This document shows, in pieces, positions 3,001 to 51,163 of a DNA stretch of 64,000 bases. The notes beneath the pieces are model-generated. The model was not told the DNA's origin. It saw only the letters and a program-made list of their open reading frames with translations, and ran no database searches. Position numbers and translations under genes: made by a program. Every line of letters begins with the position of its first letter. Within the stretch, counting starts at the first letter, position 1. This DNA comes from Elusimicrobiota bacterium (GTDB lineage Bacteria > Elusimicrobiota > Elusimicrobia > UBA1565 > JACRDR01). The stretch lies in the NCBI GenBank assembly GCA_041694815.1, contig JBGFSC010000033.1, positions 64,001-128,000 on the forward strand. Direction: 5' to 3'.

Positions 3001-6000
3001 ACCGGGACGCTCAACCAAATGACGGCCATCTACGGCACGGCGAGCGACCTGCTGCCGGGCCAGCTCGACGGGATTCTCCTTAACATCGTCCAGACGGCCG
3101 GGACTGGCTCGCCTCAGACCTGGACGGACACGGGCTGGACGGCGGGGGACTCGAGCATCTGGGTGGGCACCGGCACGATCGGCGCGCTCATCACCGGAAC
3201 CACCTACGCCTGGAGCTTCTCCGGCAGCACGATCGCCTGGCTCGCCGATTCCAGCTATAAGGTAAGCACCCGCGCCCGGGACAAGGCCGGCAATTACCGC
3301 CCGATTCCCGGCAGTCCGGATATCACCTTCTCGCTCGCCGGGCCCTTATCCGGCATCACCACTCCGAGCAACGGCGCCCCGCATTTCAAGTCGGCGGCCC
3401 TGACCTCGATACTGGGCACGGCGATCAATTCCTCGACCGCCGCCGTGCGCCTGACCCAGGCCGGCCCGGACCATGCCTTCGCGGTGGGCAACGACGATCT
3501 GGCCTGGCATAGCGGCTTGGGCTGGGTGTCGACCAACACCTTCAACGGCTACATCGGCGTGACCAGCTACAACGGCGCCCCCGACCCGGACACCTGGAGC
3601 TATTCCTTCTTGGCCGCCAACTGGCAGAACAATCGCAAGTACAAGGCCGAGTCCATAGGCCGCACCCTATCGCCCGCCGTGGACCAGAGCGTGTTCACGG
3701 GAGCGGAGACCCGCGAGTTCATCATCGACGATTCCGCGCCTTCGGCGGCCGTCACCCTGCCCAGCGCGCTCTATTACCGAGCCGGGCAATTGCCGAATTT
3801 CACCGGCACGATCACGGATACGGTCCCCGGAGCGGCCAATTCGGCCAGCGTGCGCTTTAGGCTCTTGCGCATGAAGGATAGCTACGAGTGGAACGGTTCG
3901 ACCTTCGCGGCCTCCGGCATCGACCTCGTCCCGACCGATCAGGGCGGGGGCAATTACAGCTTCGCCAACTCCACCGGCGACGCGGTGTTCGAGGACGGCC
4001 TTCTCTACAAGGTGCGCATCACCGCCCAGGACCTGGCGACGAACCAGACGGTGGTCGAGCAGCCCTCTCCCAACGGGTTCCGCTTCGACGTGTCCAAGCC
4101 CACGGCGACGATCAGCGTCCCCAAGGCAGGGTATGTCATCAATAGCCTGCCGCAGCTCAGCGGCACGGCGGCCGATTTCATGTCCGGTTCGGGCAATTAT
4201 CAGGGCTCCGGGGTGTCCGGCGTGAATGTCTACCTGCAGAACCTGGCCAACGGCAGCTATTTCAACGGCTCGGGCTTTTTGAGCGCGACGCCGGTGCCCT
4301 TGGCGGCCTCCTTCTACGCGCCGAGCGGCACCTGGACCTATACCTCGGGATCGCTGGAGTCCTCGCTGACCGACGGGCTCTACAGCCTCTACGTCGAGGC
4401 CGCCGATAACGCGGGCAATGTCCAGGTGAATTTCACCGCCAACAACTCCTCGAGGACCTTCGCCATCGACAAGACGGCGCCGAGTAGGGCCATCACGACT
4501 CCCGTGTCCCAGGCCTATACCCCCGCGGCGATATTTTCCGCCAATGTCACGGGCACGAACACCGATTCCGTGGTCAACAGCACGGCGGCCGGGGCGGATT
4601 TCGTCGAATTGCAATTGTGGTATGTCGTCGGGGTCAGCAGCTATTACTGGAGCGGCTCCTGGAGCACGACGATCAGCACGCTGCAGGCCTCCGGCGCCTC
4701 CTGGAGCCTTCTGGCCCAGCAGCCGCCTCAGACCGGAGCCAACAGTTGGGCCCGCGGCGCCGACGCGGTGGATACCGAGCGGCGCTATTACGTTCGAGTG
4801 CGGGCGCATGACAAATCCACCCTCGGAGACGGTTCGGTGAGTCCTTCTACGGGTAATGTAAGCAGCTGGAGCTCGCCGCTGGGATTCATCGTCGACCCGA
4901 TCCTGCCTGTCTCCTCGGTGACGACGCCTTCCAACGGCAGCTTCGCCAGCGCCCTGCCCTCGATCTCGGGCACGGCCGACGGGGGGCTTTCGGGTCTCGG
5001 TTCCCCCGGCGGGGTGGTGGTCCGCATCACGACCAACCCGAGCACCGGCCCGGACTGGAACGGAAGCGCGTATTCGTTCACGGGGGTGCCGATATTCCGT
5101 TCCGTGACGGTCACGGGCAACAGCTGGTCGTATCCGGGATCTACGGGAGACAATTTGACGGGGGCCTTCCAGGACCATAACGTCTACTACGTCTATTCGA
5201 AGGCCACCGACGGCGCCGGAAATCCCGAGTCAGGCATGTTCGTTTCCACCGTCACCATCGACGCCTCGGCGCCGAGCTTGTCGATCAGCCATCCGAGCAC
5301 TCCGCCGAACCCGCCCTTCTATTCGAACAACACCGAATCGACGCGCAAGAGCACCTATACCTGGGGCGCAATTTCGGACCCCGCTCCCGTGCCTTCCGGC
5401 GTCACGCAGGTCTGGGTGGCGATTGCCTCCGGCTCCTCGCTCAATGTTTGGTGGAGCACGACGACCAACAGCTTCAGCGTCAATCAAACCGCCGTCCACT
5501 GGTCGACGCAGGTATACGTGCCCGGCGCCGCGCGCTGGGAATATTATCCGCCCTGGACGCTTTCGGACCAGATCAGCTACAAGGTCTTCGTCCGGGCCAG
5601 CGATGGGGCAGGCAACTGGACGGGCAACATCGTCAATCCCGGCGATGCCGGAGAGCTCTCGCAGCAGTTCAAGTACGACATACTCCGCCCCACGGGCACG
5701 GTGAGCGGTCCGGCCAACGGGAGCAACGTCAAATCCTTGGCCGCCTTCTCGGGCAGCGCGGCCGACCCCGGCGGCAGCGCGGGCTCGGGCATCCAGATCG
5801 TCTATGCCGGCGTGAAGAAGACCTCGGTGATCCCGAACGAATGGTGGAACTGGGGCACGAAGCAATTCGATTCCGGGCTCAGCGATCCTCCGGCCCTCTC
5901 CCCTTTAAGCGCGGCCTGGACCCAGGTGGCGACCACCAGCGCCCAAGGCTTCAATTCCGTCGGCTGGTCGACGCCGGTGCCGGTGAATATGCTGGTGAGC

Positions 6001-9000
6001 TCCAACACCTACCAGGTGGTGGTGGCGGCCGTGGACTGGGCGACGAATCGCCCGCCGGACGCTGAGCCGACGCTCTCGGGAGCCGGCGCGAATTTCCGCT
6101 ACGACACCCAGGCCCCGGTGGTGGCGGCCACCTTTCCGGTCAGCGGGCTGGCCTATAACGCGGCGAGCCTGACTCCTCTCGCCGGCACGGCGGCGGACAA
6201 CACGACGGGCAATTCCGGAGTGCAGAGCGTCCAGATCTTGCTTAAGAACAGCGTGACCAACTCCTATTGGAGCGGCAGCGGCAATATCTTCGATGCCCCG
6301 CCTTCCGGCTATTCCAATTGGGTAACGATGAGCGGCAAGGAAACCTGGAGCCGCTCCTGGCCGTCGCTCGACAGCAACGTCAAATACATCCTGTGGGTGC
6401 GGGGCAGCGATAACGCTGTCAACATCTCGACCTACCCGGCCTACCCGGCCGATCAGGGCCGGCTCGACGCCAACCAGAACATCGACGGCAGCGTGGCGAT
6501 CAACTTCATCTACGACACCGACCCGCCGGTGTCCAAGATGACCTCGCCCCAGCCGGGGGCCTATATCCAGAACCCGGCCGTTTTGGCGACCGTCTCCGGC
6601 ACGGCCTATTCAGACGTCGCCAACGTTTCGGGAGCCTCCTATGTCGACCAGGTGCGGCTCAATCTGTATTGCTCGGGCTGCGCGGCGGGCGATGTGCCGG
6701 GCTGGTGGACGGGAGGCGGTTGGAGCACGACGCAGCCCGATCCGCCGCAATTCGCCGCCTCCGGACCGCCTGGCAGCCCCTCGGTCAACTGGAGCTTTAG
6801 CTTCTCGAACAGTTGGGCTGAGGGCTACCAGTACATCGTCTACTCCCGCGCCCGGGATTTCGCCACGAACCTGGAGTCGCCCCAGGCCCAGGGCGGCTTC
6901 ATCGTGGACCTGAGCACTCCTTCGGCGAGCCTCGTCTCTCCCGCCAATAATGTCTTCTACGTGAGCGTCAGCTCGGTCACGGGGTCGGCCGACGACCGCT
7001 TCTGCACCTTCAACCCGGCTTTGTGCGTCGTCAACAACCGCGACAAGCAGGCCGGCATCGCCGGCTCCAGCGTCACCGTGGTGATCCAGCGCCTGAGCGA
7101 CTACAAATACTGGAGCGGTACCGCCTTCGACTCCACCGTGCCCGTCTGGTCCTCGGCCAATTTCGTCGGGATGTCCAGCGGAACCTGGAGCTACTCGATC
7201 AACCCGAGCTTCCTGGTCGACGGATCGAGCTTCGCGGTGACGGCGCGGGCCAAGGACCAGGCGGGCAATCTGCAGCTTTCCTATAGCACGAATGTCTTCA
7301 CCATCGACTCGCAAGCCCCGACTTCGATGGCTACGGCGCCGGCTACGACGGTCGATGTGATGACTCCCATCTACGGCACGGCCAGCGACCCCGCCATCGG
7401 AGTGCTCGATGGCGTGCTGCTCAACATCGTGCAAACGGTGGGCAACGGCTCGCCTCAGACCTGGACGGACACGGGCTGGGTCGCCGGGAACTCGAGCATC
7501 TGGGTGGGCACCGGCACGATCGGCGCGCTCATCACCGGAACCACCTACGCCTGGAGCTTCTCCGGCAGCACGATTACCTGGCTGTCGAACTCCACCTATC
7601 AGATCAAGACCCGCGCCCGGGACAAGGCCGGAAATTACCGTCCCGTTCCCGGCAGCGCGGACCTGAGCTTCTCCATCTCCGGCCCGCTTTCGGGCATCAC
7701 CACTCCGAGCAACGGCGCCCCGCATTTCAAGTCGGCGGCCCTGACCTCGATACTGGGCACGGCGATCAATTCCTCGACCGCCGCCGTGCGCCTGACCCAG
7801 GCCGGCCCGGACCATGCCTTCGCGGTGGGCAACGACGATCTGGCCTGGCATAGCGGCTTGGGCTGGGTGTCGACCAACACCTTCAACGGCTACATCGGCG
7901 TGACCAGCTACAACGGCGCCCCCGACCCGGACACCTGGAGCTATTCCTTCTTGGCCGCCAACTGGCAGAACAATCGCAAGTACAAGGCCGAGTCCATAGG
8001 CCGCACCCTATCGCCCGCCGTGGACCAGAGCGTGTTCACGGGAGCGGAGACCCGCGAGTTCATCATCGACGATTCCGCGCCTTCGGCGGCCGTCACCCTG
8101 CCCAGCGCGCTCTATTACCGAGCCGGGCAATTGCCGAATTTCACCGGCACGATCACGGATACGGTCCCCGGAGCGGCCAATTCGGCCAGCGTGCGCTTTA
8201 GGCTCTTGCGCATGAAGGATAGCTACGAGTGGAACGGTTCGACCTTCGCGGCCTCCGGCATCGACCTCGTCCCGACCGATCAGGGCGGGGGCAATTACAG
8301 CTTCGCCAACTCCACCGGCGACGCGGTGTTCGAGGACGGCCTTCTCTACAAGGTGCGCATCACCGCCCAGGACCTGGCGACGAACCAGACGGTGGTCGAG
8401 CAGCCCTCTCCCAACGGGTTCCGCTTCGACGTGTCCAAGCCCACGGCGACGATCAGCGTCCCCAAGGCAGGGTATGTCATCAATAGCCTGCCGCAGCTCA
8501 GCGGCACGGCGGCCGATTTCATGTCCGGTTCGGGCAATTATCAGGGCTCCGGGGTGTCCGGCGTGAATGTCTACCTGCAGAACCTGGCCAACGGCAGCTA
8601 TTTCAACGGCTCGGGCTTTTTGAGCGCGACGCCGGTGCCCTTGGCGGCCTCCTTCTACGCGCCGAGCGGCACCTGGACCTATACCTCGGGATCGCTGGAG
8701 TCCTCGCTGACCGACGGGCTCTACAGCCTCTACGTCGAGGCCGCCGATAACGCGGGCAATGTCCAGGTGAATTTCACCGCCAACAACTCCTCGAGGACCT
8801 TCGCCATCGACAAGACGGCGCCGAGTAGGGCCATCACGACTCCCGTGTCCCAGGCCTATACCCCCGCGGCGATATTTTCCGCCAATGTCACGGGCACGAA
8901 CACCGATTCCGTGGTCAACAGCACGGCGGCCGGGGCGGATTTCGTCGAATTGCAATTGTGGTATGTCGTCGGGGTCAGCAGCTATTACTGGAGCGGCTCC

Positions 9001-36228: not shown

Positions 36229-36310
36229 AGGTGCCAGGCATCCACTTTCTACACTTTGTTGAAATTCTCGAGAAAGTAGAGAAAGTGTAGAAAGTGAATG
36301 TCTGGCACCT
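36229..36310. repeat. Long imperfect inverted repeat (29-bp arms) after the giant gene; terminator or REP-like element
   Basis: aggtgccaggcatccactttctacacttt (36229-36257) pairs with aaagtgtagaaagtgaatgtctggcacct (36282-36310), with one G-U pair and one mismatch. Confidence 0.8.
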
Positions 36311-36345: not shown

Positions 36346-36373
36346 TTGACAAAGCAAGTGGACCTGTTATACT
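36346..36373 (+). promoter_or_regulatory. sigma70-type promoter with extended -10
   Basis: TTGACA (36346-36351), 16-nt spacer, TATACT (36368-36373) preceded by TGn; a second TTGACAAAGC copy starts at 36334. Confidence 0.75.
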
Positions 36374-36449: not shown

Positions 36450-36533
36450 TGCGGGCGATAATAGCAAACCCGCCGCAAGACGGGGGCGCAAAGCCGTGGT
36501 CCCGGTTTCCGGGATGCCAGGCTGCCGAATGCG
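36450..36533 (+). ncRNA. GEMM-I cyclic dinucleotide riboswitch, c-AMP-GMP (3',3'-cGAMP)-type variant
   Basis: cgataatagcAAAcccgcc-GCAA-gacgggggcgcAAAgcc-gtggtcccgg-ttt-ccgggatgccaggc-tgccga: P2 with AAA bulge and GNRA loop, CGCAAAGCC junction, P3 stem and 3' GCCGA. A at 36463 occupies the Vc2 G20 position. Confidence 0.88.
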
Positions 36534-38144
36534 ATGGCCCGAAGAGAACGATTAGGGGCTTGTCCCCTGCTTCAGAACTGCCTCAAGAGCGCGGCCTTGG
36601 CCGGCTTTTGGGGCGTCGTCGTTTTAGGGGCCATCCCGGCGTTCGCCGGGGAAGGAGGCGGGCAGGCGGGCACCTTCCTTTCCTATGGGGTCGGCGCCCG
36701 CGCCCTGGCGATGGGCGGTGCCTTCTACGCCATCTCAGACGACGCTACCGCGGGGTACTGGAACCCGGCCGGCTTGGCCCAGGTTCAACGCAAGGAGCTC
36801 ACTACGATGCAGGCCACGCTCTTCGCCCAGACCAAGCTCACCTATATGGGCTTCGCCTATCCCCGCGCCGCCGGCGGCACCTGGGCCTTCAGCCTGACGC
36901 AGTTGGTCTCCTCCGGTTTCGAGAAGGTCAGCGCCACCTTCGACCCCGCCACCAGCGAGCCCACCGGGGTGCAGACCGCGGGCAGCTTCTCCGACCAACA
37001 GACGGCCTACGGCCTGTCCTGGGGAAAGCAGGTCACCGACACCATGTCCTTCGGAACGACGCTCAAGCAGGTCAAGCGCCAGCTCGACAATTCCGTCGAC
37101 AGCCATATGGCCATGGACATCGGCATGATGCGGCAGATGTCGAGTCTCCACAGGCTCGGCATCGGCGTGCAGAACGTCTTTAGCCGCAGCTCCGGGGACA
37201 CCGACGATAAACTGCCCGTCACGGCGAAGCTAGGCAACAGCCTGACCCTCTTTAAGGGTCGCCTTCTCTTCGGCCTCGACCTCGCCAAGCCACAGACCAG
37301 CGGCTTGGGCTGGCGCTTCGGCGGCGAGTTCTGGGCCACCCGCTGGTTTCCGCTCCGCTTCGGCCTGATGGGTTCGCCGGGCATCCAGGAGACCGATTTC
37401 GGCTTCGGCCTCGCCTTCCGCTACTTCAACCTCGACATCGCCAACGGCATCCACGATCTCGGCGCCAGCACCCGCATCTCGCTGACGGCCAAGTTCGGCA
37501 AGTCCAAGAACGAGGTTTCGGGAGAGAAGATCAGCGCGCTCATCCAGGCGGGCTTCGAGGCCTTCAAGGAGGGCAATTTCCGCCTCGCCACGGTGCGCTT
37601 CACGCAGGCGGCCGACGCCGACCCGGAGAACCGCGACGTGCGCGCGATGCTCACCCGCCTGCAGACGGCGGTGACCTACGTGCCCGAGGCCCAGGGCGGC
37701 GAGGAGATACAGACCTACATCCGCAAGGGCGTGATCGCCTACGTCGACGGCCGCGACCTGCGGGGCGCGGTCAATTCCCTGCGCTACGCCTTCAACAAGA
37801 ACCCGCGCGACGAGAAGCTGCTCTCCTTGCTCAACTTAGTCGAGCGCGAGACGGGGGCCTCGGAGATGACCCGCAAGCCGGAGGGGCCCGAGCAGTTCAC
37901 CTTCGTCGATCAGAAGATCTTCGACGCGCGCCAGGCCGTCTACGACGGCAAGTACGACCTGGCCATCCGCCGCACGCAGGACGTGCTCGACCTGGAGCCC
38001 AACAACGTCACGGCGCTCGAGATCATGGGCAGCGCCTTCTTCCTGATGGAGGAGCGGGCCAAGGCGAAGGCGGTCTGGAAGAAGGTGCTCCAGATCGACC
38101 CGAAGAACCGGGTGGTGCGCGAATTCCTCCAGCAGATTCAGTAA
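36534..38144 (+). CDS. PorV/PorQ (UPF0164)-family outer-membrane beta-barrel fused to C-terminal TPR repeats
   Basis: Signal peptide ending AFA; hallmark 'FL..GVGARALAMGGAF.A..DDATA.YWNPAGLA'; amphipathic beta strands to about 37500, then helical TPRs (AFKEGNF...DPEN; LDLEPNN...LQIDPKN). The exact start is uncertain. Confidence 0.85.
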   Translation: MARRERLGACPLLQNCLKSAALAGFWGVVVLGAIPAFAGEGGGQAGTFLSYGVGARALAMGGAFYAISDDATAGYWNPAGLAQVQRKELTTMQATLFAQTKLTYMGFAYPRAAGGTWAFSLTQLVSSGFEKVSATFDPATSEPTGVQTAGSFSDQQTAYGLSWGKQVTDTMSFGTTLKQVKRQLDNSVDSHMAMDIGMMRQMSSLHRLGIGVQNVFSRSSGDTDDKLPVTAKLGNSLTLFKGRLLFGLDLAKPQTSGLGWRFGGEFWATRWFPLRFGLMGSPGIQETDFGFGLAFRYFNLDIANGIHDLGASTRISLTAKFGKSKNEVSGEKISALIQAGFEAFKEGNFRLATVRFTQAADADPENRDVRAMLTRLQTAVTYVPEAQGGEEIQTYIRKGVIAYVDGRDLRGAVNSLRYAFNKNPRDEKLLSLLNLVERETGASEMTRKPEGPEQFTFVDQKIFDARQAVYDGKYDLAIRRTQDVLDLEPNNVTALEIMGSAFFLMEERAKAKAVWKKVLQIDPKNRVVREFLQQIQ

Positions 38145-38208: not shown

Positions 38209-38251
38209 GGCGACTTGAAAATTTAATATGGGGCCCCTACACTTATCGAGT

Positions 38252-40180
38252 ATGCTCCGCTTAAGGATCGTGGCGGCCTTATTGGCCGTTCACGCGGCGA
38301 TGCCCGTCGGCGCCCGGGCGGTCGTCGACGCTCCCGACCTGTCGCTGCTCGAGAGAGAGACCGCCCTCAAGCGCGAGATCGAGAACAAGATCCAAAGCGA
38401 TATTCTCGACCCGATACTGGGCAAGGACCGGGCGAAGGTATTCATGGACATCCAGTTGGAGGTCATGGCCCAGCAGCGCGAGAATCAGCGCACCGGCGCC
38501 GGCATGGCGGAACGCTACAAAGAGAAGCTCGGTCCCAATCCGGGCGCCAGCTTTCCCATGCAATTCATCCTGCCCGGGGTGCCCAAGCCGAAGAACGTCA
38601 ACAACGCCCCGACCCCCAAGCCGGAGGCCTCGCAGGGCCAGGTCGCCTCGCAGGAGAAGGCCGACAAGGAGGAGATATTCTCCCTGCAGACCACGGTCAA
38701 GCGCCTGCTCGTGACCGTGATCCACGACGATAGCCTGCCGCAGCCCAAACTCGAGATGGTGCGCCAGCGCATCATTGATGCCCTCACGCAGTTTAAGCTC
38801 GGCAAGGACCAGATCGTTTTCCGACCCACGAATTTCAAGACGGCCGTATGGCTCGACGATTTGAAGAACCCGAGCGTCTACATCCCGCTGCTCTACGCGC
38901 TCCTCCTGCTGCTGCTGCTGCTGTTCCTCTTCGGACCGCTGGCGGGTTTCATGCGCCGCTATGTCGAGGCCATCCGGGAGAAACCCGCCGCGGAGGTGAA
39001 CGTCGAATCCCAGATCGAACAGCCGGAGGAGGAGGGGCGGGGCCTCGGGGGCCCCGAAAAGAGCGAGCTCGACATCATGCTCGGGCGCAAGCCGACCGAG
39101 CCGCCGCCGCCGTCGGAGGAGGACGAGGCCATGAAGAAATTTGAGCCGTTCGCCTACATCAACGAGGAGAACCTCAAGCGCCTGGCCAATCTGTTCATGC
39201 TGCGCCGCGAGGAGCCCTGGCTGATCGCCGTCGTCTTAAGCTACTTGAAGCCCGAGTTCGCGCGGCAGGTGCTAACGCAGTTGCCCGTGGAGCTGCAGGC
39301 CAAGGTCGCCCTGGAGGCCCTGAAGGTGCGGCAGGTGACCCGCGAGCAGGTGGTCGCCATCGACGCAGATGTCAAGGAGTCGATCGACTTCGTCGTCGGC
39401 GGTATGGAGCGCCTTACCCAGATGCTCGAGGAGTCCGACACGCAGACCCGCAAGAACATCCTGGAGTACCTAAAGAACGAGAAGCCCATGGTCTACGAGC
39501 GGGTGCGCAAGTTCATCCTCACCTTCGAGGACGTGGTGGGTTTCCCGGACCGCGAGATGCAGGCCATCGTCCGCGAGCTCAAGACCGACGCGATGGCGCG
39601 CGCCCTGCAGGGAGCCTCGCCGGAGGTGGTCAACAAATTCCTTTCCAACATGTCGGGGGGCGCGGCCTCCCTGCTCAAGGAGTCCATGGAGTACAGCAAG
39701 GGCTTGACCGAGGCCCAGGTGGAGGAGGAGCGGAGCAAGATTATCGATACGATCAAGACGATGGAGAAGGAAGGCAAGATCGCCATACGCGAGGGGCGTG
39801 GCCAGCTCGAGGGCTTCCAGGAGGAGCTAGCTATCGAGCGCGTCGAGCGCCTCGGCGCGCGGGCGCAGGCGAAGGCGGCGCTGCCCGCTCCCGCCCCGGC
39901 CGCCGCTTCAGACCCTGCCGCCGCGCAGCAATTCCTACAGGCAGGAGCGCAGGCGCACGACGCAGGCCGTTTTGAGGAGGCCATGGCCCAGCTGCGCCAA
40001 GCCCTGGATTTGGACCCGAATCTCTGGCAAGCTTATCAGTACCTTGGCAACGCCCTGCTGCAAACAGGTCGTGCGACGGAGGCGCTGGGCTGCTACGAGA
40101 AGCTGCTTGAGATCAATCCTGATCCCCAACTGCGGTCGTGGGTCGAGAGCTTCAAGGCCCAGTTGAAAACGGCATCATGA
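38252..40180 (+). CDS. Fusion protein: signal peptide + FliF C-terminal ring-building (RBM3)-like domain + TM helix + FliG middle/C-terminal domains + TPR
   Basis: MLRLRIVAALLAVHAAMPVGARA signal (alternative ATG at 38228). 'EIENKIQSDILDPILGKDRAKV...PGVP...VKRLLVTVIHD...KDQIVFRPTNF' is FliF_C-like; poly-Leu TM; 'PFAYI...EEPWLIAVVLSYL...GGMERL...LTFEDV...DREMQAIVRE...ALQGAS...NMS..AASLLKE...EKEGKI' is FliG-like; terminal TPR pair. Confidence 0.8.
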   Translation: MLRLRIVAALLAVHAAMPVGARAVVDAPDLSLLERETALKREIENKIQSDILDPILGKDRAKVFMDIQLEVMAQQRENQRTGAGMAERYKEKLGPNPGASFPMQFILPGVPKPKNVNNAPTPKPEASQGQVASQEKADKEEIFSLQTTVKRLLVTVIHDDSLPQPKLEMVRQRIIDALTQFKLGKDQIVFRPTNFKTAVWLDDLKNPSVYIPLLYALLLLLLLLFLFGPLAGFMRRYVEAIREKPAAEVNVESQIEQPEEEGRGLGGPEKSELDIMLGRKPTEPPPPSEEDEAMKKFEPFAYINEENLKRLANLFMLRREEPWLIAVVLSYLKPEFARQVLTQLPVELQAKVALEALKVRQVTREQVVAIDADVKESIDFVVGGMERLTQMLEESDTQTRKNILEYLKNEKPMVYERVRKFILTFEDVVGFPDREMQAIVRELKTDAMARALQGASPEVVNKFLSNMSGGAASLLKESMEYSKGLTEAQVEEERSKIIDTIKTMEKEGKIAIREGRGQLEGFQEELAIERVERLGARAQAKAALPAPAPAAASDPAAAQQFLQAGAQAHDAGRFEEAMAQLRQALDLDPNLWQAYQYLGNALLQTGRATEALGCYEKLLEINPDPQLRSWVESFKAQLKTAS

Positions 40181-40192
40181 TAGGAGCGTCCC

Positions 40193-41566
40193 GTGTCCGA
40201 AGAAAAGAAAGACGATAAGAAGCCCTTTTCCTTGCCTCCTCTTCCCGGAGGCCTGAGGCTGCCGCCCATGCCGGGGATGGGGGCCGGCTCCCTGCGTCCC
40301 GGCCTGCCACTGGGCCCGGGGCCCGCGGCGGCGGTGGCGCCCTCCGCCGTTCCGGAGCCGCCGAAGCCGCCGGAACCACCGGGGGCCGAGCTGGAACGCA
40401 AGCTGGCCGAGACCGAAAAGCGCCTGCAGGAGGAGAGGGAGAAGGTGCTCTTAGCCAATCTCAAGGCGCAGGAAGAGAAGGTCTACGCGGCGAAGGTAGA
40501 GACGGCGATCAAGGAGGTGCAGGAGAAGCTGCGCCGTGACCGCCGGGACGCCGACGCCGAGGAGGCCAGGATACGCTTGGAGGCCCGCATCCAGGAGCTC
40601 GAACAGAAACTCATCGCCGAGCGCGAGACATGGGTCACTACGCTCAAGGGGCAGATGCAGAGCCGCCAGGCGCAGGATCGCGAGATCGAGACGCAGTTCA
40701 CCTCGCGGATGCAGGAGATGGAGCGGCGCTGGCTGGAGGAGAAGGCGCATTGGCAGAAATCCCTCATGGGCAAGGAGGAGGAGAACCGCGCCCTCAGGAA
40801 CATCGTCGAGAAGCTCAAGGGGGCGGACCTCGAGCTGCAAAAGGTGTCGCAGGAGAAGAAGCTCCTGGAGGTCCGGATCGCCGAACTGGGTCAGGAGGCC
40901 GCCGCCGCCCAATCGCAGGCGCGCGCCATGGCCGAGCATGAGAAGGAGTATTTCGCACTCAAGGCGGAGCTGACGTTGGCCCGCGAGCAGGCGCGGCTCA
41001 AGCAGGAGGCCCTCGAGGGGGAGCTCAAGAGGCTCAAGGACGAGAACGAGCCCCTGCGCCGCGACGCCCAGGGCGCCTACGCACGAGCCCGGGCCGAGGC
41101 CGACCTCGAGATCCATACCCACCGCGAGCGCTTCGAGCGGCAGGCCCAGGCGGCGCGGGAGGAGGCCGCCTCGGAAATCCAAAGGCTCAAGGGGCAATTG
41201 GAGGCCGCCAGCGCCTCGCTGCAGCGCATGCGGGCCGTCGGCGCGGCGTTGGAGAGGCAGGCCGCCGCCCTGCGGGTGCAGGCCGAGGAGGCGGGCAAGG
41301 CCAAAAAGGAGCTCGAGCAGATGAACGAGCGCTACAAGGCGGAGTTTCTCGTCCTGCAGCGCCGCTGGCTCGAGCGCGAAAAGGAGATACGCCAGGAGTC
41401 GCAGCGGGCCGTCGAGCAGATGCGGCGGGAGGCCGAGGCGGCCGTCGCCCAGGCGAGGAAGGATTTGGAGGAGGAGCGCCGCAGGACGGCGCTGCTTGAG
41501 GGCGAGATCCGCCACCGCCAGGTCGCGGGGCTGCTCAAGCCCGAGCCTCCGGCGGCGCCGGCATGA
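40193..41566 (+). CDS. Long coiled-coil protein with Pro-rich N-terminus, probably cytoplasmic
   Basis: AGGAG then GTG start; about 65 aa Pro/Gly-rich followed by about 380 aa E/K/R/Q/A/L heptads; no signal or TM; ATGA overlap with flbD. Confidence 0.8.
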   Translation: MSEEKKDDKKPFSLPPLPGGLRLPPMPGMGAGSLRPGLPLGPGPAAAVAPSAVPEPPKPPEPPGAELERKLAETEKRLQEEREKVLLANLKAQEEKVYAAKVETAIKEVQEKLRRDRRDADAEEARIRLEARIQELEQKLIAERETWVTTLKGQMQSRQAQDREIETQFTSRMQEMERRWLEEKAHWQKSLMGKEEENRALRNIVEKLKGADLELQKVSQEKKLLEVRIAELGQEAAAAQSQARAMAEHEKEYFALKAELTLAREQARLKQEALEGELKRLKDENEPLRRDAQGAYARARAEADLEIHTHRERFERQAQAAREEAASEIQRLKGQLEAASASLQRMRAVGAALERQAAALRVQAEEAGKAKKELEQMNERYKAEFLVLQRRWLEREKEIRQESQRAVEQMRREAEAAVAQARKDLEEERRRTALLEGEIRHRQVAGLLKPEPPAAPA

Positions 41567-41800: not shown

Positions 41801-42616
41801 ATGGATATCGCAACAGTGATGGGCATCATCGTCTTCTTCGGACTGACCGTATCGTCGATATGGATCGCCGAAGGCGCGGCGGGATTTAAGCCTTTCGCCA
41901 ACCTGGAGGCCTTGCTCATGGTGATGGGGGGCACTTTCTGCGCCACCCTGGTCAATTACCCGCTCAACCAGGTGGTCGGCCTGGGTGGGATCCTGCGCAA
42001 GGTGATGCGCTCCTCCGGCGAGGACACCTCCAAGATCGTCGGCACCTTCGTCGCCTTGTCACAGAAGGCCAAGCGGGAAGGCTTCCTCGCGCTGCAAGGC
42101 GACGTGCGCGGGCTCGACAACGATTTCCTGAGGCGGGGGGTGCAGCTCGTCATCGACGGGGCCGACCAGGAATTCATCCGGAACATGCTCGAGACCGAGA
42201 TTGGCTTCCTCCGCGAACGGCATAAGGTCGGCCAGGAGATATTCAACGCCATGGGCACCTACGCCCCCGCCTTCGGCATCATCGGTACCGTGCTGGGCAT
42301 GATACTCATGCTCTCCTCGATCGATGACGTCGCTCAGGTCCCGCGCCGTATGGCCCTGGCCCTGGCGGCCGCCTTCTACGGGCTCGGCTCCGGTTACATG
42401 ATATTCCTGCCCATGGGCGGCAAGCTTCGGCGGCGTTCCGAGGAGGAGATGCTCGTCAAGGAGATCGTCATCCGCGGGGTGCTGCTCCTGCAAAGCGGCG
42501 CGACCCCGAGCGTGGTGGAGGCCAATCTCAAGGCTTACTTGGAACCGGCCAAGCGCGTATTGATCAAGACGGCCGAGGAAGCGACGCCCGCCGCCCCGGC
42601 GCCCGGAGCAAGATAA
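41801..42616 (+). CDS. motA: MotA/PomA-family stator subunit
   Basis: MDIAT..G start, 'GGT..ATL', 'KAKREGFLAL', 'FL.RG.QLVIDG', 'APAFGIIGTVLGMI', 'FYG.....IFLP..GKL'. Confidence 0.92.
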   Translation: MDIATVMGIIVFFGLTVSSIWIAEGAAGFKPFANLEALLMVMGGTFCATLVNYPLNQVVGLGGILRKVMRSSGEDTSKIVGTFVALSQKAKREGFLALQGDVRGLDNDFLRRGVQLVIDGADQEFIRNMLETEIGFLRERHKVGQEIFNAMGTYAPAFGIIGTVLGMILMLSSIDDVAQVPRRMALALAAAFYGLGSGYMIFLPMGGKLRRRSEEEMLVKEIVIRGVLLLQSGATPSVVEANLKAYLEPAKRVLIKTAEEATPAAPAPGAR

Positions 42617-43359
42617 TGCCCCTACGGGCGCCCAAGGGCTTCATCGACGAGACGGACCCCAAGGTCTGCCAGATTGGGCACCCCGCGCCCCCCTGGCTCG
42701 TCAACTACGCCGATCTCATGACCGAACTGGTCTGCTTCTTCGTCATTCTCTACGCCTTGTCGGCGGCACTCAACAAGAACGTGCAGCAGGCCGCCAAGCA
42801 GGTCAAGGAGATGATCGAGAACAAGGAAGTCTCGGGTGAGGTGAAGGTCGACCGCGAAGGGCTCAAGATATCGCTGGAGGAGCAGGGAGAGAACGTCTTT
42901 TTCGAGAGCGGTTCGGCGGAGCTTACCCCGCGTATGCGCGTGCTCATGAACAAGCTCGCCCCGGTGCTGACTAAGCTCGTGCAGCAGCACGAGATCATCA
43001 TCGAGGGGCATACCGACAATATCCCGATCAAGAACGACCTCTACCTCTCCAATTGGGAGCTCTCCTCCGAGCGCGCCACCAATGTCGTCGAATACCTGAT
43101 CATGGCGCACGGCTTCCCGCCATCCAAGATGGGGGCCATGGGGTACGGTGAGAACCGTCCGGTCGTTGCCAACGACACGCCGGCCAATCGCGCGCGCAAC
43201 CGCCGGGTGGTTTTCTTCGTCAAGAACGCACCGATCGCGCCGCCGGCGGCCGCCAAGGCGCCCGCGGCCGTGCCCGCGCAGGCACAGGCTCCGCTTCCCG
43301 CCTCTAAGGGGGCGCTCGAGACGCTTCGAGGCGTCTTGTCCCGATTTACTCCAAAATGA
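42616..43359 (+). CDS. motB: MotB-family stator subunit with OmpA-like peptidoglycan-binding domain
   Basis: 'WLVNYADLMTELVCFFVILYA' TM with the conserved Asp; 'FESGSA.L', 'IEGHTDN.PI', 'SNWELSS.RA', 'GYGE.RP', 'RA.NRRV'. Confidence 0.92.
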   Translation: MPLRAPKGFIDETDPKVCQIGHPAPPWLVNYADLMTELVCFFVILYALSAALNKNVQQAAKQVKEMIENKEVSGEVKVDREGLKISLEEQGENVFFESGSAELTPRMRVLMNKLAPVLTKLVQQHEIIIEGHTDNIPIKNDLYLSNWELSSERATNVVEYLIMAHGFPPSKMGAMGYGENRPVVANDTPANRARNRRVVFFVKNAPIAPPAAAKAPAAVPAQAQAPLPASKGALETLRGVLSRFTPK

Positions 43360-43372
43360 TTCAATAAGACGA

Positions 43373-44071
43373 ATGCCCCGCCTCGTTCTATTCCTTTCCT
43401 TAATAATGACCTTGAGCGCCTGCTCAGGCCTGCAATTGGGCAAGGGCAGGAAGAAGGTTGTCTTGTTCGATTACGCGGAAGGGCGCGTCGTCGACGTCGC
43501 GATTACGGACCGGCGCACGGGGGCCACGGAATTGCTGTTCGTATCGATGCCGAAGCGCTCCCTGTTCTTGGAAGGCTATATTCAGGGAATCGTCACCGAT
43601 TACAACGACAACCCGATCCAGGGGGTGATCGTGCGTGCCTTGGCCGAGGGCGAGCAGAAAATGATCGAAAGCGGAAAGGCGGCCTTCCAGAGCTCATCCT
43701 TCGACGCGGGCGTCAGCGACACCAACGGCATCTACCGCATCCGCTTTTCTTTGCCCGTGATCAATCGCAAGATCGACGTGCGCGGGAAATTCCTGTACAA
43801 TCCGGGCTGGGAGCAGGAGAAGGTCAATCTCGGCAAGGCGTACGAGCCCCAGACCAAGGAATCCCCCTTCCGGCTCATCTTCGATGAGGCGCAGGGAATG
43901 CTCGTATTCGCCGAGGGGATCCGCAAGGCCATCGTGATGCCCGTGCTCAGCAACGCCCCTCCCAAGACGCAGCTGCCCGGCGTCAAGCCCGTCGAGGCCC
44001 CGAAGGAAGAGAAGAAGCCGGAAAAGCCTGCGGAAGACGACCTGTTCAAGAGCTTCGGCTTCGGCCCCTAG
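43373..44071 (+). CDS. Lipoprotein with carboxypeptidase-regulatory-like beta-sandwich domain
   Basis: Start reassigned to ATG 43373: MPRLVLFLSLIMTLSA-C lipobox; 'IQGIVTDYNDNPIQGVIV...SDTNGIYRI'. Confidence 0.7.
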   Translation: MPRLVLFLSLIMTLSACSGLQLGKGRKKVVLFDYAEGRVVDVAITDRRTGATELLFVSMPKRSLFLEGYIQGIVTDYNDNPIQGVIVRALAEGEQKMIESGKAAFQSSSFDAGVSDTNGIYRIRFSLPVINRKIDVRGKFLYNPGWEQEKVNLGKAYEPQTKESPFRLIFDEAQGMLVFAEGIRKAIVMPVLSNAPPKTQLPGVKPVEAPKEEKKPEKPAEDDLFKSFGFGP

Positions 44072-47394: not shown

Positions 47395-49341
47395 GTGAAA
47401 TTTACGCGACACGCGGCGGCACTGGCCGGCTACGTGGCGTTGACCTTAGTATTCACGTTCCCGCTCGTCCTCCATTTCTCGGACCGGGTTATCTTCGGCC
47501 CGTCGGGCGACTACTCCTGGTGGATCTGGGATCTCTGGTATTTCCGCTACGCCGTCGACGTGGCCCGCGTCGATCCGTTATGGTGCGACCTGATTTATTG
47601 GCCCTACGGCGTGAACATGATCCTCCAGCACGGCTGGTTTTACAAACTGGCTGGCTACTTCCTGCAACGTTTCTTCGGCCTTATCGCCGTATACAACATG
47701 CTCCTGCTTACGCCCTACGTCCTATGCGGTTATGCGGTGTTCTTGGGAGCCTCGCTCTTGGGGGCAAGCTGGGCTTCGGCCTTCGTCGCGGGGACCATCT
47801 TCGCGTTCTCCCCGGGCGCGTATTCCCAGCTTTGGGACGGGGCCGGCTTTGATCTCTTAAGCCGGCATACGATCGCGTTCTTCGTGATCGCCCTGATGTT
47901 GGCCGTGCGCCAGAGGCAGCTGCGCTACTGCCTTTTGGCGGCGCTGATGCTAACGTGGGCATGGGGCGGGGATTATTATTACTTCCTCGTCAGCACGCTG
48001 TTTATCCCCGTATTCTTTCTGTTGGTCGAAAAGCCCATCGGCGTGCGGGTATCGAAGCGATTCGCGCCGCCTGGCATGGCGGCGAGGGTATTGGATGCGG
48101 CGCTCGCGGCGAATCTCTGTTGGATATTCTGGCGGCTCCGCCAAGGGCAGATTGAATTTCACGGCCGCGGCTCCGCCGCGACGCTCGTGGCCTACGTGTT
48201 CCCTTACATCCTTTTCTGGGGGCTCTTGGCGCTTCGGCTCTTCTTATCCTATTCGCTGTCGACGACCCTCGATCGGAAAGCCTTCAGCTGGGAGCGCGTC
48301 GCCCCCTACGTGGGCACGATCGCCTGCTACGCCGTACTCAACCTGCCGCTCATCCTCGCGGTTCTGGAGCTGATGAAGGACGGCAATACCCCTTCTCCCC
48401 CCAGGGCTTGGCGCGGGGGCGGCAACCCCACCGAATTGCTATGGTTGCTCCATCCCGGCATCCACCATCCCTTATGGGGTCACTGGAGCGACGTGATGGG
48501 TGGGGAATCCCGCCACGTTCCCTCTGGTTACCTTCCCATGATCGCCGCGATCTGGCTCTGGATCCGCCGTCCCACCGACCGATGGGTGAAACTATGGTTC
48601 GGTTGCCTCGCCTTCGCCCTTCTTCTCACGATGGGGCCGTGGCTTAAGATCGGCGGCATCCATACCTACCTCCCGATGCCGTTCTATTTCGTCCACCTGC
48701 TGCCGATCTACAACAACATGCAAAACGGCCATCGCTTTGCTTCCGCACTCGTTACCCTATTCTTGGCGCTGCTCTTCGCCCCTGTCCTAGAGCAATTTAA
48801 GTCCGGCGCGCCTCGCCGTTGGGCGGCCTGGATCCCATGGCTCGCGTTCCTCTGGCTTGCCGTGGAGTTCGCGCACGACCGCCTTCGCCTGATCGCCGTT
48901 GAAACCCCCGCGATTTTCGAGCGGCTAGGACAAAGGCCGACAGCCGCGATGCTCACGGTGCCGACGGGAGCCCTCTTCGACGGCATCACCAGCTCGAGCT
49001 TCGGTCACGTCCCCATCAAACCGCATTACCAGATCGCCCACCGTAAGCCTATCGTAGGCGGCCTCATGGGTCGTGTGCCAGGCTACGTTCATCGGGCGAT
49101 GGTCTCCGATCCGCTCCTCTCCGCCATGGTATCGGCACAATCCGGGGCTCCGGTCCCCGACCGCCTTCGGGACCGGAGCTTCCTCCGCCGCCACCTGGCC
49201 GCGATGAAGATCGGCTACGTGATGGTCTTCGAGGACAAGATCCCAGAGGGATTCCGACGGGTTTTAAAGGACTGGCCCCTGCGCAAGATAGACGAGGACA
49301 AGCAACGGCGCATCGTCTTATTCCAGGTCGAGCGTCGATAG
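47395..49341 (+). CDS. Multi-pass membrane protein, GT-C/YfhO-like putative glycosyltransferase
   Basis: Many TM segments; 'GD....W..W', 'IYWP.G', 'VYN', 'A.VAG.IFAFSP', C-terminal soluble domain 'YQIAHRKPIVGG'. Confidence 0.6.
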   Translation: MKFTRHAAALAGYVALTLVFTFPLVLHFSDRVIFGPSGDYSWWIWDLWYFRYAVDVARVDPLWCDLIYWPYGVNMILQHGWFYKLAGYFLQRFFGLIAVYNMLLLTPYVLCGYAVFLGASLLGASWASAFVAGTIFAFSPGAYSQLWDGAGFDLLSRHTIAFFVIALMLAVRQRQLRYCLLAALMLTWAWGGDYYYFLVSTLFIPVFFLLVEKPIGVRVSKRFAPPGMAARVLDAALAANLCWIFWRLRQGQIEFHGRGSAATLVAYVFPYILFWGLLALRLFLSYSLSTTLDRKAFSWERVAPYVGTIACYAVLNLPLILAVLELMKDGNTPSPPRAWRGGGNPTELLWLLHPGIHHPLWGHWSDVMGGESRHVPSGYLPMIAAIWLWIRRPTDRWVKLWFGCLAFALLLTMGPWLKIGGIHTYLPMPFYFVHLLPIYNNMQNGHRFASALVTLFLALLFAPVLEQFKSGAPRRWAAWIPWLAFLWLAVEFAHDRLRLIAVETPAIFERLGQRPTAAMLTVPTGALFDGITSSSFGHVPIKPHYQIAHRKPIVGGLMGRVPGYVHRAMVSDPLLSAMVSAQSGAPVPDRLRDRSFLRRHLAAMKIGYVMVFEDKIPEGFRRVLKDWPLRKIDEDKQRRIVLFQVERR

Positions 49342-49357: not shown

Positions 49358-51163
49358 TTACTTGCGGAGCTCGTAGAGCGTTACGGCTTCGTTGCGGTAG
49401 ACCGGCTTAAGGCGACCGCGGTTGCGCCGTTCGAAGTCCGTGGAGGCGTAGGTTCTTTCGAAATCGCCGAACCACACGTAGTCGACGGAGGGCGGCGGCG
49501 GCCTGTTTCGCATCGCTTTCTCGATGAAGGAGCGCACGCTCCGGAGCGGCAGGAAATAGTAAAAATAGATCATCCGCACGTACTCGCGTTCGGCTTCTCC
49601 CCGACGGTAGTCGTTGCGGCCGATGGAAAAGTATTCCTTGCTAAAGCAATCCTTAAGAAATCGGGCCTTGTCCGTTCGGAAGAAGTCCAGTGCGTAGACC
49701 AACCGCTCGGCGATGCGGGGCGTGGGTAGATCCGAAGTCGTGGGCAAGGCGGCGGGAAGCACCACCCTCTGCCCCGTAAACACCGGGATCAATAGATTGA
49801 CCTCTGGATTGAGCGAGAGCACGACGCTGTCAACGGGAGCATGCCGATCCAGGAAACGGAGCGCTTCGTCGTAGTGCCGGGGAAGCCCCTGCATGGGGTA
49901 ATGGATCGCCGCGTACGAAAGGGTCTGACCGAAGGCGATAAGCAAGACGGCGCAGGAGGCCGCCAGCCAGGCGCCGGCGCGGCGTTTCCAAGATTCCGGC
50001 ACGAAGGATGCCAAGAGGAAAAACGCGAAGAGATTCGCTTGATACGACCAGCAATAGTCACCGAGGTATATGCCGGTGAGCAGCTGGAGGTTGAGCAAGA
50101 GGAAGGTGCCTCCCAGCAGCGAGGCCACGTAGAGGCCGGCAGGCTCCCGAAGGCGCCAGACGCCGACCGCAAAAAGCAGCAAATAGGGCAGCGAGCGTGG
50201 GTTGAAAAATCGATCGAAGACCAAGCCCATGCGCAGCGCCAGTTCCGGGTCGAGCGAGCGGTTGACCCACAAGAATGGAATGCTTAAGAACGCCGAGAGC
50301 GCAAGCGCCGCGGCGACCGGCCTCCAGGGGCGCCCTCGGGCAGCCAAGACGGCGGCAAAAACCCCTCCGGCCGCCATGGCCGTTCCCCACGAATCGAGCC
50401 GGCAATAGGCCGAGATTCCTCCGGCAAGCCCGGCGAGGAGGGGCCAACGCCAGCCGGGGCGTTCCGAGCTTCGGATCGTCAAGAGGCTTACGAGAAACAG
50501 TATCGCATAGTTGATTCCGGGCCTCGGGAGGCGCGCGACGCTTTCGGTACGCCCATAGGATAACAGCGTCCAGAGATTGTGCCCGATCAGTCGCCAGGGG
50601 TTCGGGTCGAATTTTAGATTGGATAGAAACAACAACGTCGTCAGGTAGCTCATGCAAACGGCGAAGACGGCGCAAAAAAAGGCGATCGGCGCCGAACGAG
50701 TGGTCGATTCCACGATAGCAAAGACAAGGTAAAACCAGGCCGCGCAGCAGGCTAGGCGCAGGAGCACCCAGGCCCAAGAGGCGTCGCGGGTCAGGTGAAA
50801 GAATAGCGCCATGCCTTTGTACATCACCAGTTGCGAGACGGCCGGGCGCAGGCTGCGGTTCTCCAAGATATAAGGATCGTATTGGACTCCGGGCTTGGCC
50901 GCTCCCCTGAGAAGCGCCGCGTAGGTCAACTCATCGTGTTGCAGTTCCGTTCCGAATAGGCCTAATACCGTAAAGCGCCCGTCATTCGGCCATCGGGCGA
51001 CCAGTTCCGGGAAATGCCTTTGCCAGGCGGCGCGGCAGGCCGCCGAGAGGAAATAACCGGAGCACATGGCCATGGAGACGGCCAGCGCCCCGAAGGCCAG
51101 CGCGAAGCGGCGCCGCGGTCCGGTGAAAAGGAATCCGCCCGACGGGTCCTCGCGCTGGGCCAC
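49358..51163 (-). CDS. Multi-pass membrane protein, putative GT-C-fold glycosyltransferase
   Basis: First-loop 'HDE..Y' acidic motif, multiple TM helices, C-terminal soluble domain ending 'VYRN..V.LY'. Confidence 0.55.
   Translation of the reverse strand: MAQREDPSGGFLFTGPRRRFALAFGALAVSMAMCSGYFLSAACRAAWQRHFPELVARWPNDGRFTVLGLFGTELQHDELTYAALLRGAAKPGVQYDPYILENRSLRPAVSQLVMYKGMALFFHLTRDASWAWVLLRLACCAAWFYLVFAIVESTTRSAPIAFFCAVFAVCMSYLTTLLFLSNLKFDPNPWRLIGHNLWTLLSYGRTESVARLPRPGINYAILFLVSLLTIRSSERPGWRWPLLAGLAGGISAYCRLDSWGTAMAAGGVFAAVLAARGRPWRPVAAALALSAFLSIPFLWVNRSLDPELALRMGLVFDRFFNPRSLPYLLLFAVGVWRLREPAGLYVASLLGGTFLLLNLQLLTGIYLGDYCWSYQANLFAFFLLASFVPESWKRRAGAWLAASCAVLLIAFGQTLSYAAIHYPMQGLPRHYDEALRFLDRHAPVDSVVLSLNPEVNLLIPVFTGQRVVLPAALPTTSDLPTPRIAERLVYALDFFRTDKARFLKDCFSKEYFSIGRNDYRRGEAEREYVRMIYFYYFLPLRSVRSFIEKAMRNRPPPPSVDYVWFGDFERTYASTDFERRNRGRLKPVYRNEAVTLYELRK

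Follow-up and report, generated by a model that had tools for sequence, protein, structure and literature searches.

Ring-building motifs (RBM) 1 and 2 of the flagellar protein FliF house the export gate of the flagellum, an organelle that also has a rod, hook and filament, and to our knowledge FliG and flagellar-type MotAB are known only as flagellum parts. The sole natural FliF-FliG fusion found in print is that of the Chlamydiaceae, which in the passages that describe it (Bergeron 2016, PeerJ, PMC4768692) is a protein of approximately 330 aa that retains two transmembrane (TM) helices and two RBMs, one of them RBM2-like, lacks the SpoIIIAG-like RBM3, carries a FliG-M-like region only and is without MotAB, in a genome with FlhA and an injectisome and with SctQ as the proposed partner. 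Here, a fusion of different make-up is described, encoded in a 64,000-nucleotide stretch of an Elusimicrobiota genome (GenBank assembly GCA_041694815.1, contig JBGFSC010000033.1, positions 64,001 to 128,000; hereafter the window). As in the Chlamydiaceae, a shortened FliF is naturally joined to a FliG-like domain in a non-flagellated bacterium; compared with that paper's description, the Elusimicrobiota protein differs in having RBM3 only, one TM helix, both FliG-M and FliG-C and a tetratricopeptide repeat (TPR) tail, with MotAB and FlbD in its operon. The fusion gene is the second of this operon and is co-transcribed with those for flagellar-type MotA, MotB and FlbD, and in our assessment there is about an even chance that its product is the rotor of a flagellum-independent, MotAB-driven envelope ring working on an outer-membrane barrel that holds a giant adhesin.

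The fusion protein (Table 1) is on record in a public collection as a called protein of identical 642-aa sequence, and for this reason a start at 38252 was preferred to the ATG at 38228. A reading of the window made without any searches (the sequence-only reading) had proposed a signal peptide followed by an RBM3/SpoIIIAG-like ring domain with a PGVP insertion, a single TM helix, a Pro/Glu linker, the FliG middle and C domains and a TPR tail, and all of these parts were recovered, the first of them as a signal-like N-terminus. In a full-length AlphaFold model built on a 50-sequence alignment (mean predicted local distance difference test score, pLDDT, 81.5), the N-terminal part consists of a helix at residues 2-16, which belongs to an N-terminus that by eye resembles a cleavable signal with its site between ARA and V, then a helix at 30-56, a long strand at 61-78 and a low-confidence insertion at 79-138, and the periplasmic domain is completed by a second long strand (140-159), a helix (164-177) and a strand (188-193). 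Next comes a 37-residue helix with a hydrophobic stretch inside it (207-243); residues 245-288 are disordered, FliG helices occupy 305-506, a single long helix spans 516-542 and the TPR helices lie at 555-641.

The periplasmic part, which forms one domain only in the models, is confirmed as a homologue of the FliF RBM3/collar by sequence families and structure comparisons. Its own segment matches the family YscJ_FliF_C (PF08345) weakly (E 0.0073-0.031, 15-17 bits); when 46 orthologous and paralogous N-domains were scanned singly, 24 matched PF08345 at E<=0.1 (best 3.8e-10), no other family was matched by more than two of them, and a paralogue in the same genome, on contig C41, scored 37 bits, above the curated cut-off of 23.8. 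A profile of the domain compared with the sequences of solved structures gave non-significant matches (E 0.07-0.44), the top three of which were FliF. The modelled topology is alpha-beta-[insertion]-beta-alpha-beta, and for this domain, of which a separate AlphaFold model was also made (pLDDT 76), ranks 1-18 of a Foldseek search of the PDB were all FliF MS-ring or RBM3-collar structures (best E 1.5e-7), the RBM3/collar entry 6sd1 being among the matches at E 4.2e-4 and SpoIIIAG following at rank 19 (E 2.4e-3). VIA-align, which is independent of Foldseek and was run over 48,161 chains, likewise placed FliF RBM3 first (Z 10.8, rmsd (root-mean-square deviation) 2.5, 99 aligned), with FliF matches at Z 10.8, 10.6 and 9.8 over Salmonella FliF 228-438 and the ring-building-motif proteins PrgK, EscJ, SpoIIIAH and SpoIIIAG next (Z 8.3-9.2). 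The RBM3 fold had been set beforehand as the point at which the proposed architecture could fail, and it was matched. SpoIIIAG of the sporulation channel shares with the domain the RBM fold and its collar-forming beta insertion, within a large homo-oligomeric ring (VIA Z 8.3), but is a weaker match than FliF and has no associated FliG or stator. The insertion of the Elusimicrobiota domain occupies the place of the FliF collar and includes the domain's most conserved spot, the motif LPGVPxPK, in which P108 never varies and G109 and P111 reach at least 90% conservation across 50 sequences; the PGVP of the sequence-only reading is therefore a real feature of the family.

The cytoplasmic part matches FliG_M (PF14841) at residues 324-385 (E 5.7e-11, 42.9 bits), FliG_C (PF01706) at 414-520 (E 3.8e-26, 91.9 bits) and TPR families at 577-636 (E down to 1.8e-11), all above the Pfam cut-offs and all in the coordinates of a 650-aa form of the protein, from which eight is subtracted to obtain the 642-aa numbering. 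The FliG equivalog model TIGR00207 of NCBIfam aligns over model positions 111-333 of 338 and scores 116.5 bits against a cut-off of 226.7, and because of this sub-threshold score the fusion is regarded as carrying FliG domains without being a FliG orthologue. The EHPQ of Thermotoga FliG aligns to EEPW in the fusion, a replacement that agrees with the absence of FliM, since EHPQ is FliM-binding. The absences proposed from the sequence were also borne out. The RBM1/2 family YscJ_FliF (PF01514) has no match in the fusion protein or in the whole genome, and where FliF has its N-terminal TM1 the fusion has the stretch that by eye resembles a cleavable signal. No folded domain that could be FliG-N lies between the TM helix and FliG_M in the model, which shows only some 45 disordered residues and one short helix there, and a weak match to FliG_N (PF14842, 27.1 bits, residues 333-416) falls on the FliG_M/C repeats. 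Where FliF has a C-terminal tail that binds FliG-N, the fusion instead has a covalent linker of approximately 45 disordered residues running into FliG-M. Relative to the flagellar motor core, the features in common are the RBM3/collar fold, FliG M and C domains with 36-37% identity to Thermotoga FliG-MC (E 8.3e-35), the Gly-Gly linker of FliG (G383 and G384, at least 90% conserved), an acidic torque-helix residue facing a basic MotA residue, the channel residues of MotA and MotB, and FlbD; the differences are that ring and torque domains are one polypeptide, without RBM1/2 and FliG-N and with a C-terminal TPR tail, and that R281 and R297 of the torque helix are lost.

The genome (2.77 Mb, 54 contigs, 97.8% complete) was searched for FHIPEP/FlhA, YscJ_FliF, Flagellin_N and FliMN_C, none of which was matched and each of which was detected in four flagellated control genomes. 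It thus differs from that of a flagellated bacterium in having no matched FliM/N, FlhA or flagellin, and the failure to find FHIPEP/FlhA at this level of completeness agrees with the missing export gate that had been proposed. In a survey of 401 sampled Elusimicrobiota genomes, with up to three matches scored per genome, a profile of the fusion family at E<=1e-20 matched 178 genomes, 147 of the 293 high-quality genomes and 93 of the 123 genera, and the family was nearly absent from two families of small genomes (2/118 and 1/89). FlhA was found in nine of the 401 genomes, eight of them within the 178; three of these eight match the family profile only at approximately 1e-30, matches that are taken to be canonical FliG, and two genomes (G064 and G240) carry canonical FliG together with fusions. 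Given this distribution and these two genomes, the fusion is independent of the flagellum and able to coexist with one. The titles of 66 related loci and the names of the matches place the family in Elusimicrobiota only, other phyla not having been exhaustively searched. Shorter paralogue matches in three genomes (G003, G009 and G137) contain one or two in-frame TAA or TAG codons and could be pseudogenes, frame errors or two adjacent genes.

To place the fused FliG domains, a quick IQ-TREE phylogeny (LG+G4, midpoint root, with the Shimodaira-Hasegawa-like approximate likelihood ratio test, SH-aLRT, as the only support) was calculated from 225 FliG-MC columns and 130 rows, comprising 56 fused and 74 canonical FliGs, the latter including E. 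coli and four from Elusimicrobiota and excluding canonical matches shorter than 300 aa; once aligned, all rows were kept. All fused FliG domains fell on one side of one branch (SH-aLRT 100, length 0.40), and the canonical FliGs of Elusimicrobiota grouped with other canonical FliGs; as the tree shows one bipartition and no root, it fits an ancestral and a derived fused clade equally. A few Elusimicrobiota do retain FlhA and canonical FliG, so that flagella occur in the phylum, which would suit a fusion that is a decaying, functionless remnant of a lost flagellum. Such a remnant is extremely unlikely, being contradicted by the conservation data: the full-length family matches listed, more than 140, are open frames without stops, the family reaches about three quarters of the genera surveyed, synteny is strict across lineages sharing only 35-70% identity, the phylum's canonical FliGs lie outside the fused clade, and fusion and canonical FliG occur side by side in G064 and G240.

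Residues of the rotor-stator interface were numbered by transfer from FliG, MotA and MotB of E. coli MG1655. The best PDB relative of the operon MotA is Clostridium sporogenes MotA (6ysf, E 6.6e-53), and its scores against the NCBIfam MotP/MotA/PomA models are 201-216 bits, under the equivalog cut-offs (216 versus 394), so that it is clearly flagellar-type and not an equivalog of a named stator. At positions 264, 281, 288, 289 and 297, which we take to be the charged torque-helix residues K264, R281, D288, D289 and R297 of E. coli FliG, the window fusion has Q, G, E, S and T. Across 52 aligned rows including E. coli FliG, E predominates at 288 (47 rows) and G at 281 (45 rows), 46 rows have R, K or Q at 264 (22, 13 and 11, respectively), 40 have T or S at 297 (32 and 8), and at 289 E is found in 31 rows and S in 12. 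According to the literature on E. coli (PMC12505986; PMC7564593), MotA R90 pairs with FliG D288/D289 and MotA E98 with FliG R281. Among 40 operon pairs, drawn from 39 loci and the window, FliG 288 is E and MotA 90 is K or R in every case, and one charge pair is thereby conserved; FliG 281 is G in 38 and N in two, basic in none, and MotA 98 is Q in 31, E in seven, D in one and A in one. The E98/R281 pair is lost from the rotor in every operon and from the stator in most, and because FliG 281 is never basic, covariation between MotA 98 and FliG 281 gives nothing to correlate. The window MotA itself has K at position 90, Q at 98 and both P173 and P222, prolines that are conserved in 40 of 40 orthologues, and all four MotBs examined from this genome, that of the operon among them, have the Asp that corresponds to D32 of E. 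coli MotB.

The loss of the R281/E98 pair, together with the lack of a FliM/FliN switch complex in the genome, would suit a static envelope scaffold, in which a non-rotating ring, MotAB and the TPR-bearing barrel tie inner membrane, peptidoglycan and outer membrane together around an adhesin anchor in a Tol-Pal-like manner. This is considered very unlikely, as Glu at FliG 288, the basic residue at MotA 90, MotB D32, and MotA P173 and P222 are kept in all operons examined, and these conserved residues are important to the flagellar motor for torque and ion flow.

The operon genes are separated by gaps of 0-107 bp, and the order PorV-TPR, fusion, coiled coil, MotA, MotB, lipoprotein recurs in 66 related loci to the extent that their DNA covers it, in a scan that used one peptide pattern from a closer alignment and was limited by it in what could be found. 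Where related loci include upstream DNA, the PorV-TPR gene is directly upstream of the fusion. The coiled-coil protein matched no Pfam or NCBIfam family; its homologues follow the fusion in related loci and vary greatly in length, several kb are inserted between the two genes in distant Endomicrobia-type loci, and in two paralogous loci of the same genome its place is taken by coiled-coil-HATPase_c proteins. The lipoprotein gives a weak signal of a CarboxypepD_reg-like beta-sandwich (PF13620, 17.7 bits, under the cut-off), has only unnamed Elusimicrobiota clusters as neighbours in the Atlas, is Elusimicrobiota-specific and is kept after MotB in the closer loci. The operon has a PorV-like barrel, a coiled-coil protein and a lipoprotein where the flagellum has rod, hook and filament. 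A cyclic di-GMP (c-di-GMP)-I-type riboswitch aptamer ends 3 nt 5' of the first operon gene (36534), and a c-di-GMP-I aptamer lies directly before the barrel gene in four of six related loci scanned. The window aptamer scores best on the GGC variant model, and four related loci score on the standard c-di-GMP-I model.

The product of the first operon gene matches the PorV family model NF033709 at 98.4 bits (cut-off 90), and upstream of it lies a gene for a giant immunoglobulin (Ig)-like-repeat surface protein, whose frame begins approximately 5.1 kb before the window. This protein has Big_13 repeats and a C-terminal FlgD_ig domain (28.8 bits, cut-off 27), and its last 85 or so residues resemble a type IX secretion system (T9SS) C-terminal domain (CTD), with 16.9 bits against the type A model TIGR04183. 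Comparable cargo adjoins other loci of the genome: against the type B model TIGR04131 (cut-off 35), the cargo on C41 scores above the threshold (38.9 bits) and that on C50 below it (22.3 bits), and the rotor operon on C15 converges with the gene of a protein whose frame spans 3,533 aa and whose end is of the FlgD_ig/Por_Secre_tail kind, with a PorV gene beyond it. Proteins with a type B CTD are reported to be anchored by PorP-like proteins (PMC9143113). The genome has 22 matches to the PorV/PorQ family, in approximately 21 genes, mostly short forms without the TPR domain of the operon barrel and with no rotor nearby, which indicates that a rotor is no general requirement for such cargo. These matches lie on C40, C54, C19, C34, C15, C12, C44, C53 and other contigs, and several adjoin large proteins with T9SS-like tails. 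Taken together, these features suggest a PorV-based surface-protein system outside Bacteroidota.

The likeness to the T9SS and gliding machinery of Bacteroidota lies in the PorV/PorQ-family barrel beside very large CTD-tailed surface proteins and in an ion-driven motor of the MotAB/ExbBD superfamily as the likely energy source. The Elusimicrobiota system differs in that flagellar-type MotAB act on a FliG ring, in place of GldLM, and in that the barrel has a TPR extension; SprA, GldL and GldM were not recognised here, in searches without a positive control. GldL and GldM had no match in the genome and the same searches were silent in all control genomes, so that absence is not established, and SprA_N gave a match of 19.2 bits, below its cut-off, in a search that detected no control genome; the 1,584-aa candidate at this weak match has no Pfam family. 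The rotor and stator could accordingly be a secretion or assembly energiser, supplying proton-motive energy for exporting or inserting the CTD-bearing giants at the outer membrane, a role that would fit the PorV/PorQ-family barrel of the window operon and of the related loci with upstream DNA, the adjoining cargo with T9SS-like tails, and the need for another energy source if SprA, GldL and GldM, for which no convincing matches exist, are indeed missing. This is judged unlikely, since the approximately 21 PorV-family genes face only four rotors and most PorV-cargo pairs have none nearby, since the silence of the GldL and GldM searches and the sub-threshold SprA_N match, without a positive control, do not establish that a classical T9SS is absent, and since we know of no FadL/PorV-type barrel that serves as a translocon for folded giants.

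The four rotors of the genome were recognised by FliG_C, which was detected on C38, C41, C15 and at the start of C7. The RBM3-domain profile finds the N-terminal half of the C7 rotor at the very end of C34, and because this gene is split in such a way, its N-half ending C34 and its C-half opening C7 (L144, L007), the two are probably neighbouring contigs. There are also four MotA-type genes, on C38, C15, C7 and C29, in addition to four of ExbB/TolQ type. Searched with a profile of the PorV-TPR domain, the genome gave exactly four strong matches, at 337, 113, 107 and 79.5 bits against 47 for the fifth; the rotors and the MotA-type genes also number four. Three of these matches are C-terminal extensions of PorV/PorP-like barrels (C38, C50 and C41), and the other, a separate protein with a signal peptide, is encoded last in the C15 rotor operon, after two motB genes. 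As the periplasmic TPR domain travels with the rotor-stator modules whether or not it is fused to a barrel, it is interpreted as a working partner of the module. An orphan motA-motB pair lies on C29 (L131, C29:9000-23000; 5852-8905, minus strand) behind two response-regulator genes, one of them OmpR-type. No rotor gene is found near this pair, and the rotor that it may serve is that on C41, which itself lacks motAB.

On C41 the gene for an fn3 protein whose tail is of T9SS type B is followed by those for a PorV/PorP-TPR barrel and a kinase; the rotor gene comes next, then those for a coiled-coil-HATPase_c protein and a second kinase. C50 repeats the first three of these as fn3 cargo, barrel and kinase. 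Such neighbours could point to a surface or load sensor, in which the ring and stators would receive tension from the outer-membrane-anchored adhesin and the coiled-coil or kinase partners and the TPR tail would read out the motor's state, so that the assembly would signal surface contact and do no work. A coiled-coil-HATPase_c gene does follow the rotor both on C41 and at C34/C7, histidine kinases flank the cargo and PorV-TPR genes, the orphan C29 motAB stands behind its response-regulator genes, and the window operon is under a cyclic-dinucleotide riboswitch. However, the window operon has no kinase and its coiled-coil protein no HATPase_c domain, and the full set of ion-channel residues and FlbD are retained, which a passive sensor would not obviously need; sensing as the sole function is quite unlikely.

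The reading that we favour remains that of a MotAB-driven rotor working on the adhesin-holding barrel. In this mechanism, the RBM3 domains would assemble, FliF-like, into a large inner-membrane ring, and because FliG is fused 1:1 to the ring domain, the ring would come with a torque ring built in, and no FliG-N, FliM or FliN would be involved. MotA5B2 units anchored in the peptidoglycan would push the torque helix of FliG-C and turn the ring, with the cytoplasmic TPR tail and the coiled-coil protein probably standing in for the missing C-ring as scaffold or regulator. Work would leave via the collar tip, at the LPGVPxPK loop, or via the stators, towards the periplasmic TPR domain of the PorV/PorQ-like barrel, which would hold a surface protein with a secretion tail, here the Ig-repeat protein whose adjoining gene has an open frame of 13,791 codons. 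The machine could then move, turn or tension the giant adhesin on the cell surface, by a logic like that of SprB and the T9SS motor in gliding Bacteroidota and here from flagellar parts, with expression coupled to the cyclic-dinucleotide riboswitch. Since it lacks the flagellar export gate, FliM/N and filament, and since neither the T9SS translocon nor GldLM was recognised, it would be a new kind of machine made from known parts.

Several observations weigh against this mechanism. Transcription of the giant gene is separate from that of the motor operon, the hairpin, the promoter and the riboswitch lying between the two, and the giant protein's TIGR04183 score is under the curated cut-off of 23. 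Among 47 loci with at least 1.5 kb of upstream sequence, a giant frame with a homologous C-terminal region stands directly before PorV-TPR in 15, which speaks for the link to surface cargo, and only short frames in the remaining 32, so that the giant neighbour is found at only about a third of the judgeable loci. The C34/C7 rotor has no adjoining PorV gene, kinase-like partners at two of the four rotor loci of this genome point to a signalling role, and the torque helix, without R281 and R297 and with S at 289, makes for a non-canonical interface. Moreover, ring formation, rotation and the contact between the ring and PorV-TPR are steps that we infer.

A bolder extension of the same mechanism, which we regard as doubtful, is a third kind of ion-driven rotary surface machine, in which the MotAB-turned RBM3/FliG ring would spin or drag the PorV-TPR barrel together with one giant Ig-repeat protein, whose length is put roughly at a few hundred nanometres; the machine would serve motility or surface scanning as a protein propeller or a motorised adhesin. 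The position of the fused clade outside all sampled canonical FliGs makes it possible that such a machine is an old sister lineage of the flagellar rotor, in which type III export was never present or was lost early.

Table 1. Positions of the fusion protein, its parts and the neighbouring operon features in the window
Feature	Position in window	Residues	Strand	Basis or detail
FliF-FliG fusion, 642 aa	38252-40180		+	translation free of stops
Signal-like N-terminus of fusion		1-23
FliF RBM3/collar-like domain of fusion	38339-38830	30-193
TM helix of fusion	38870-38980	207-243
Disordered Pro/Glu linker of fusion		244-288
FliG M+C of fusion	39137-39790	296-513
TPR tail of fusion	39914-40174	555-641
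Giant Ig-like-repeat surface protein gene, 3' 36 kb	1-36225		+	open frame of 13,791 codons
Long hairpin, 82 nt, terminator-like, just 3' of the giant gene's stop	36229-36310		+	minimum free energy -49.3 kcal/mol, z -9.9 vs 200 shuffles
Sigma-70-like promoter TTGACA-16-TATACT with TG	36346-36373		+	11/12 consensus positions; pattern match only
c-di-GMP-I-type riboswitch aptamer (GGC variant model)	36454-36530		+	RF03167, 60.7 bits vs gathering score 59, E 7.6e-12
Outer-membrane PorV/PorQ-family barrel with C-terminal periplasmic TPR domain	36534-38144	barrel ~45-321; TPR ~325-536	+	NF033709, TPR matches
Cytoplasmic protein, 457 aa, Pro-rich N-terminus and long coiled coil	40193-41566		+	sequence
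FlbD/SwrD-family small protein, 74 aa	41563-41787		+	PF06289, 89.6 bits vs cut-off 24.7
Flagellar-type MotA	41801-42616		+	PF01618, 96.4 bits
MotB with plug and OmpA-like peptidoglycan-binding domain	42616-43359		+	MotB_plug 46.9 bits, OmpA 76.8 bits
Lipoprotein, lipobox LSAC	43373-44071		+	sequence

Two further open frames in the window, at 47395-49341 (+, 648 aa) and 49358-51163 (-, 601 aa), matched no Pfam family and are situated downstream of three housekeeping genes, iscS-like, mnmA and ddl. A related Elusimicrobia metagenome-assembled genome has a group II intron domain (RF00029, 51.9 bits, L065:18588-18668) downstream of its motor operon.

No description of the fusion architecture or of the operon was found in the literature searched, which did not cover subscription papers and supplements. 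The passages found in a paper on MotAB evolution (PMC12505986) contain neither Elusimicrobiota nor a FliG fusion, and the passages of PMC12204202 that concern Elusimicrobia mention them for Tol-Pal only. If the proposed reading is true, the operon represents a new class of envelope-spanning motor, conserved in a mostly flagellum-free phylum, and would offer a minimal rotor in a single polypeptide, without switch complex and export gate, for studies of torque, as well as a natural test of which rotor-stator charge pairs are required. It would also be a data point on whether rotor and stator could precede, or stand apart from, the type III secretion core, and the sister-lineage reading, if true, bears directly on the origin of the flagellar motor. 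For the organisms themselves, such a motor may account for the handling of adhesins longer than 10,000 residues by uncultured Elusimicrobiota, with the riboswitch linking this handling to cyclic-dinucleotide signalling.

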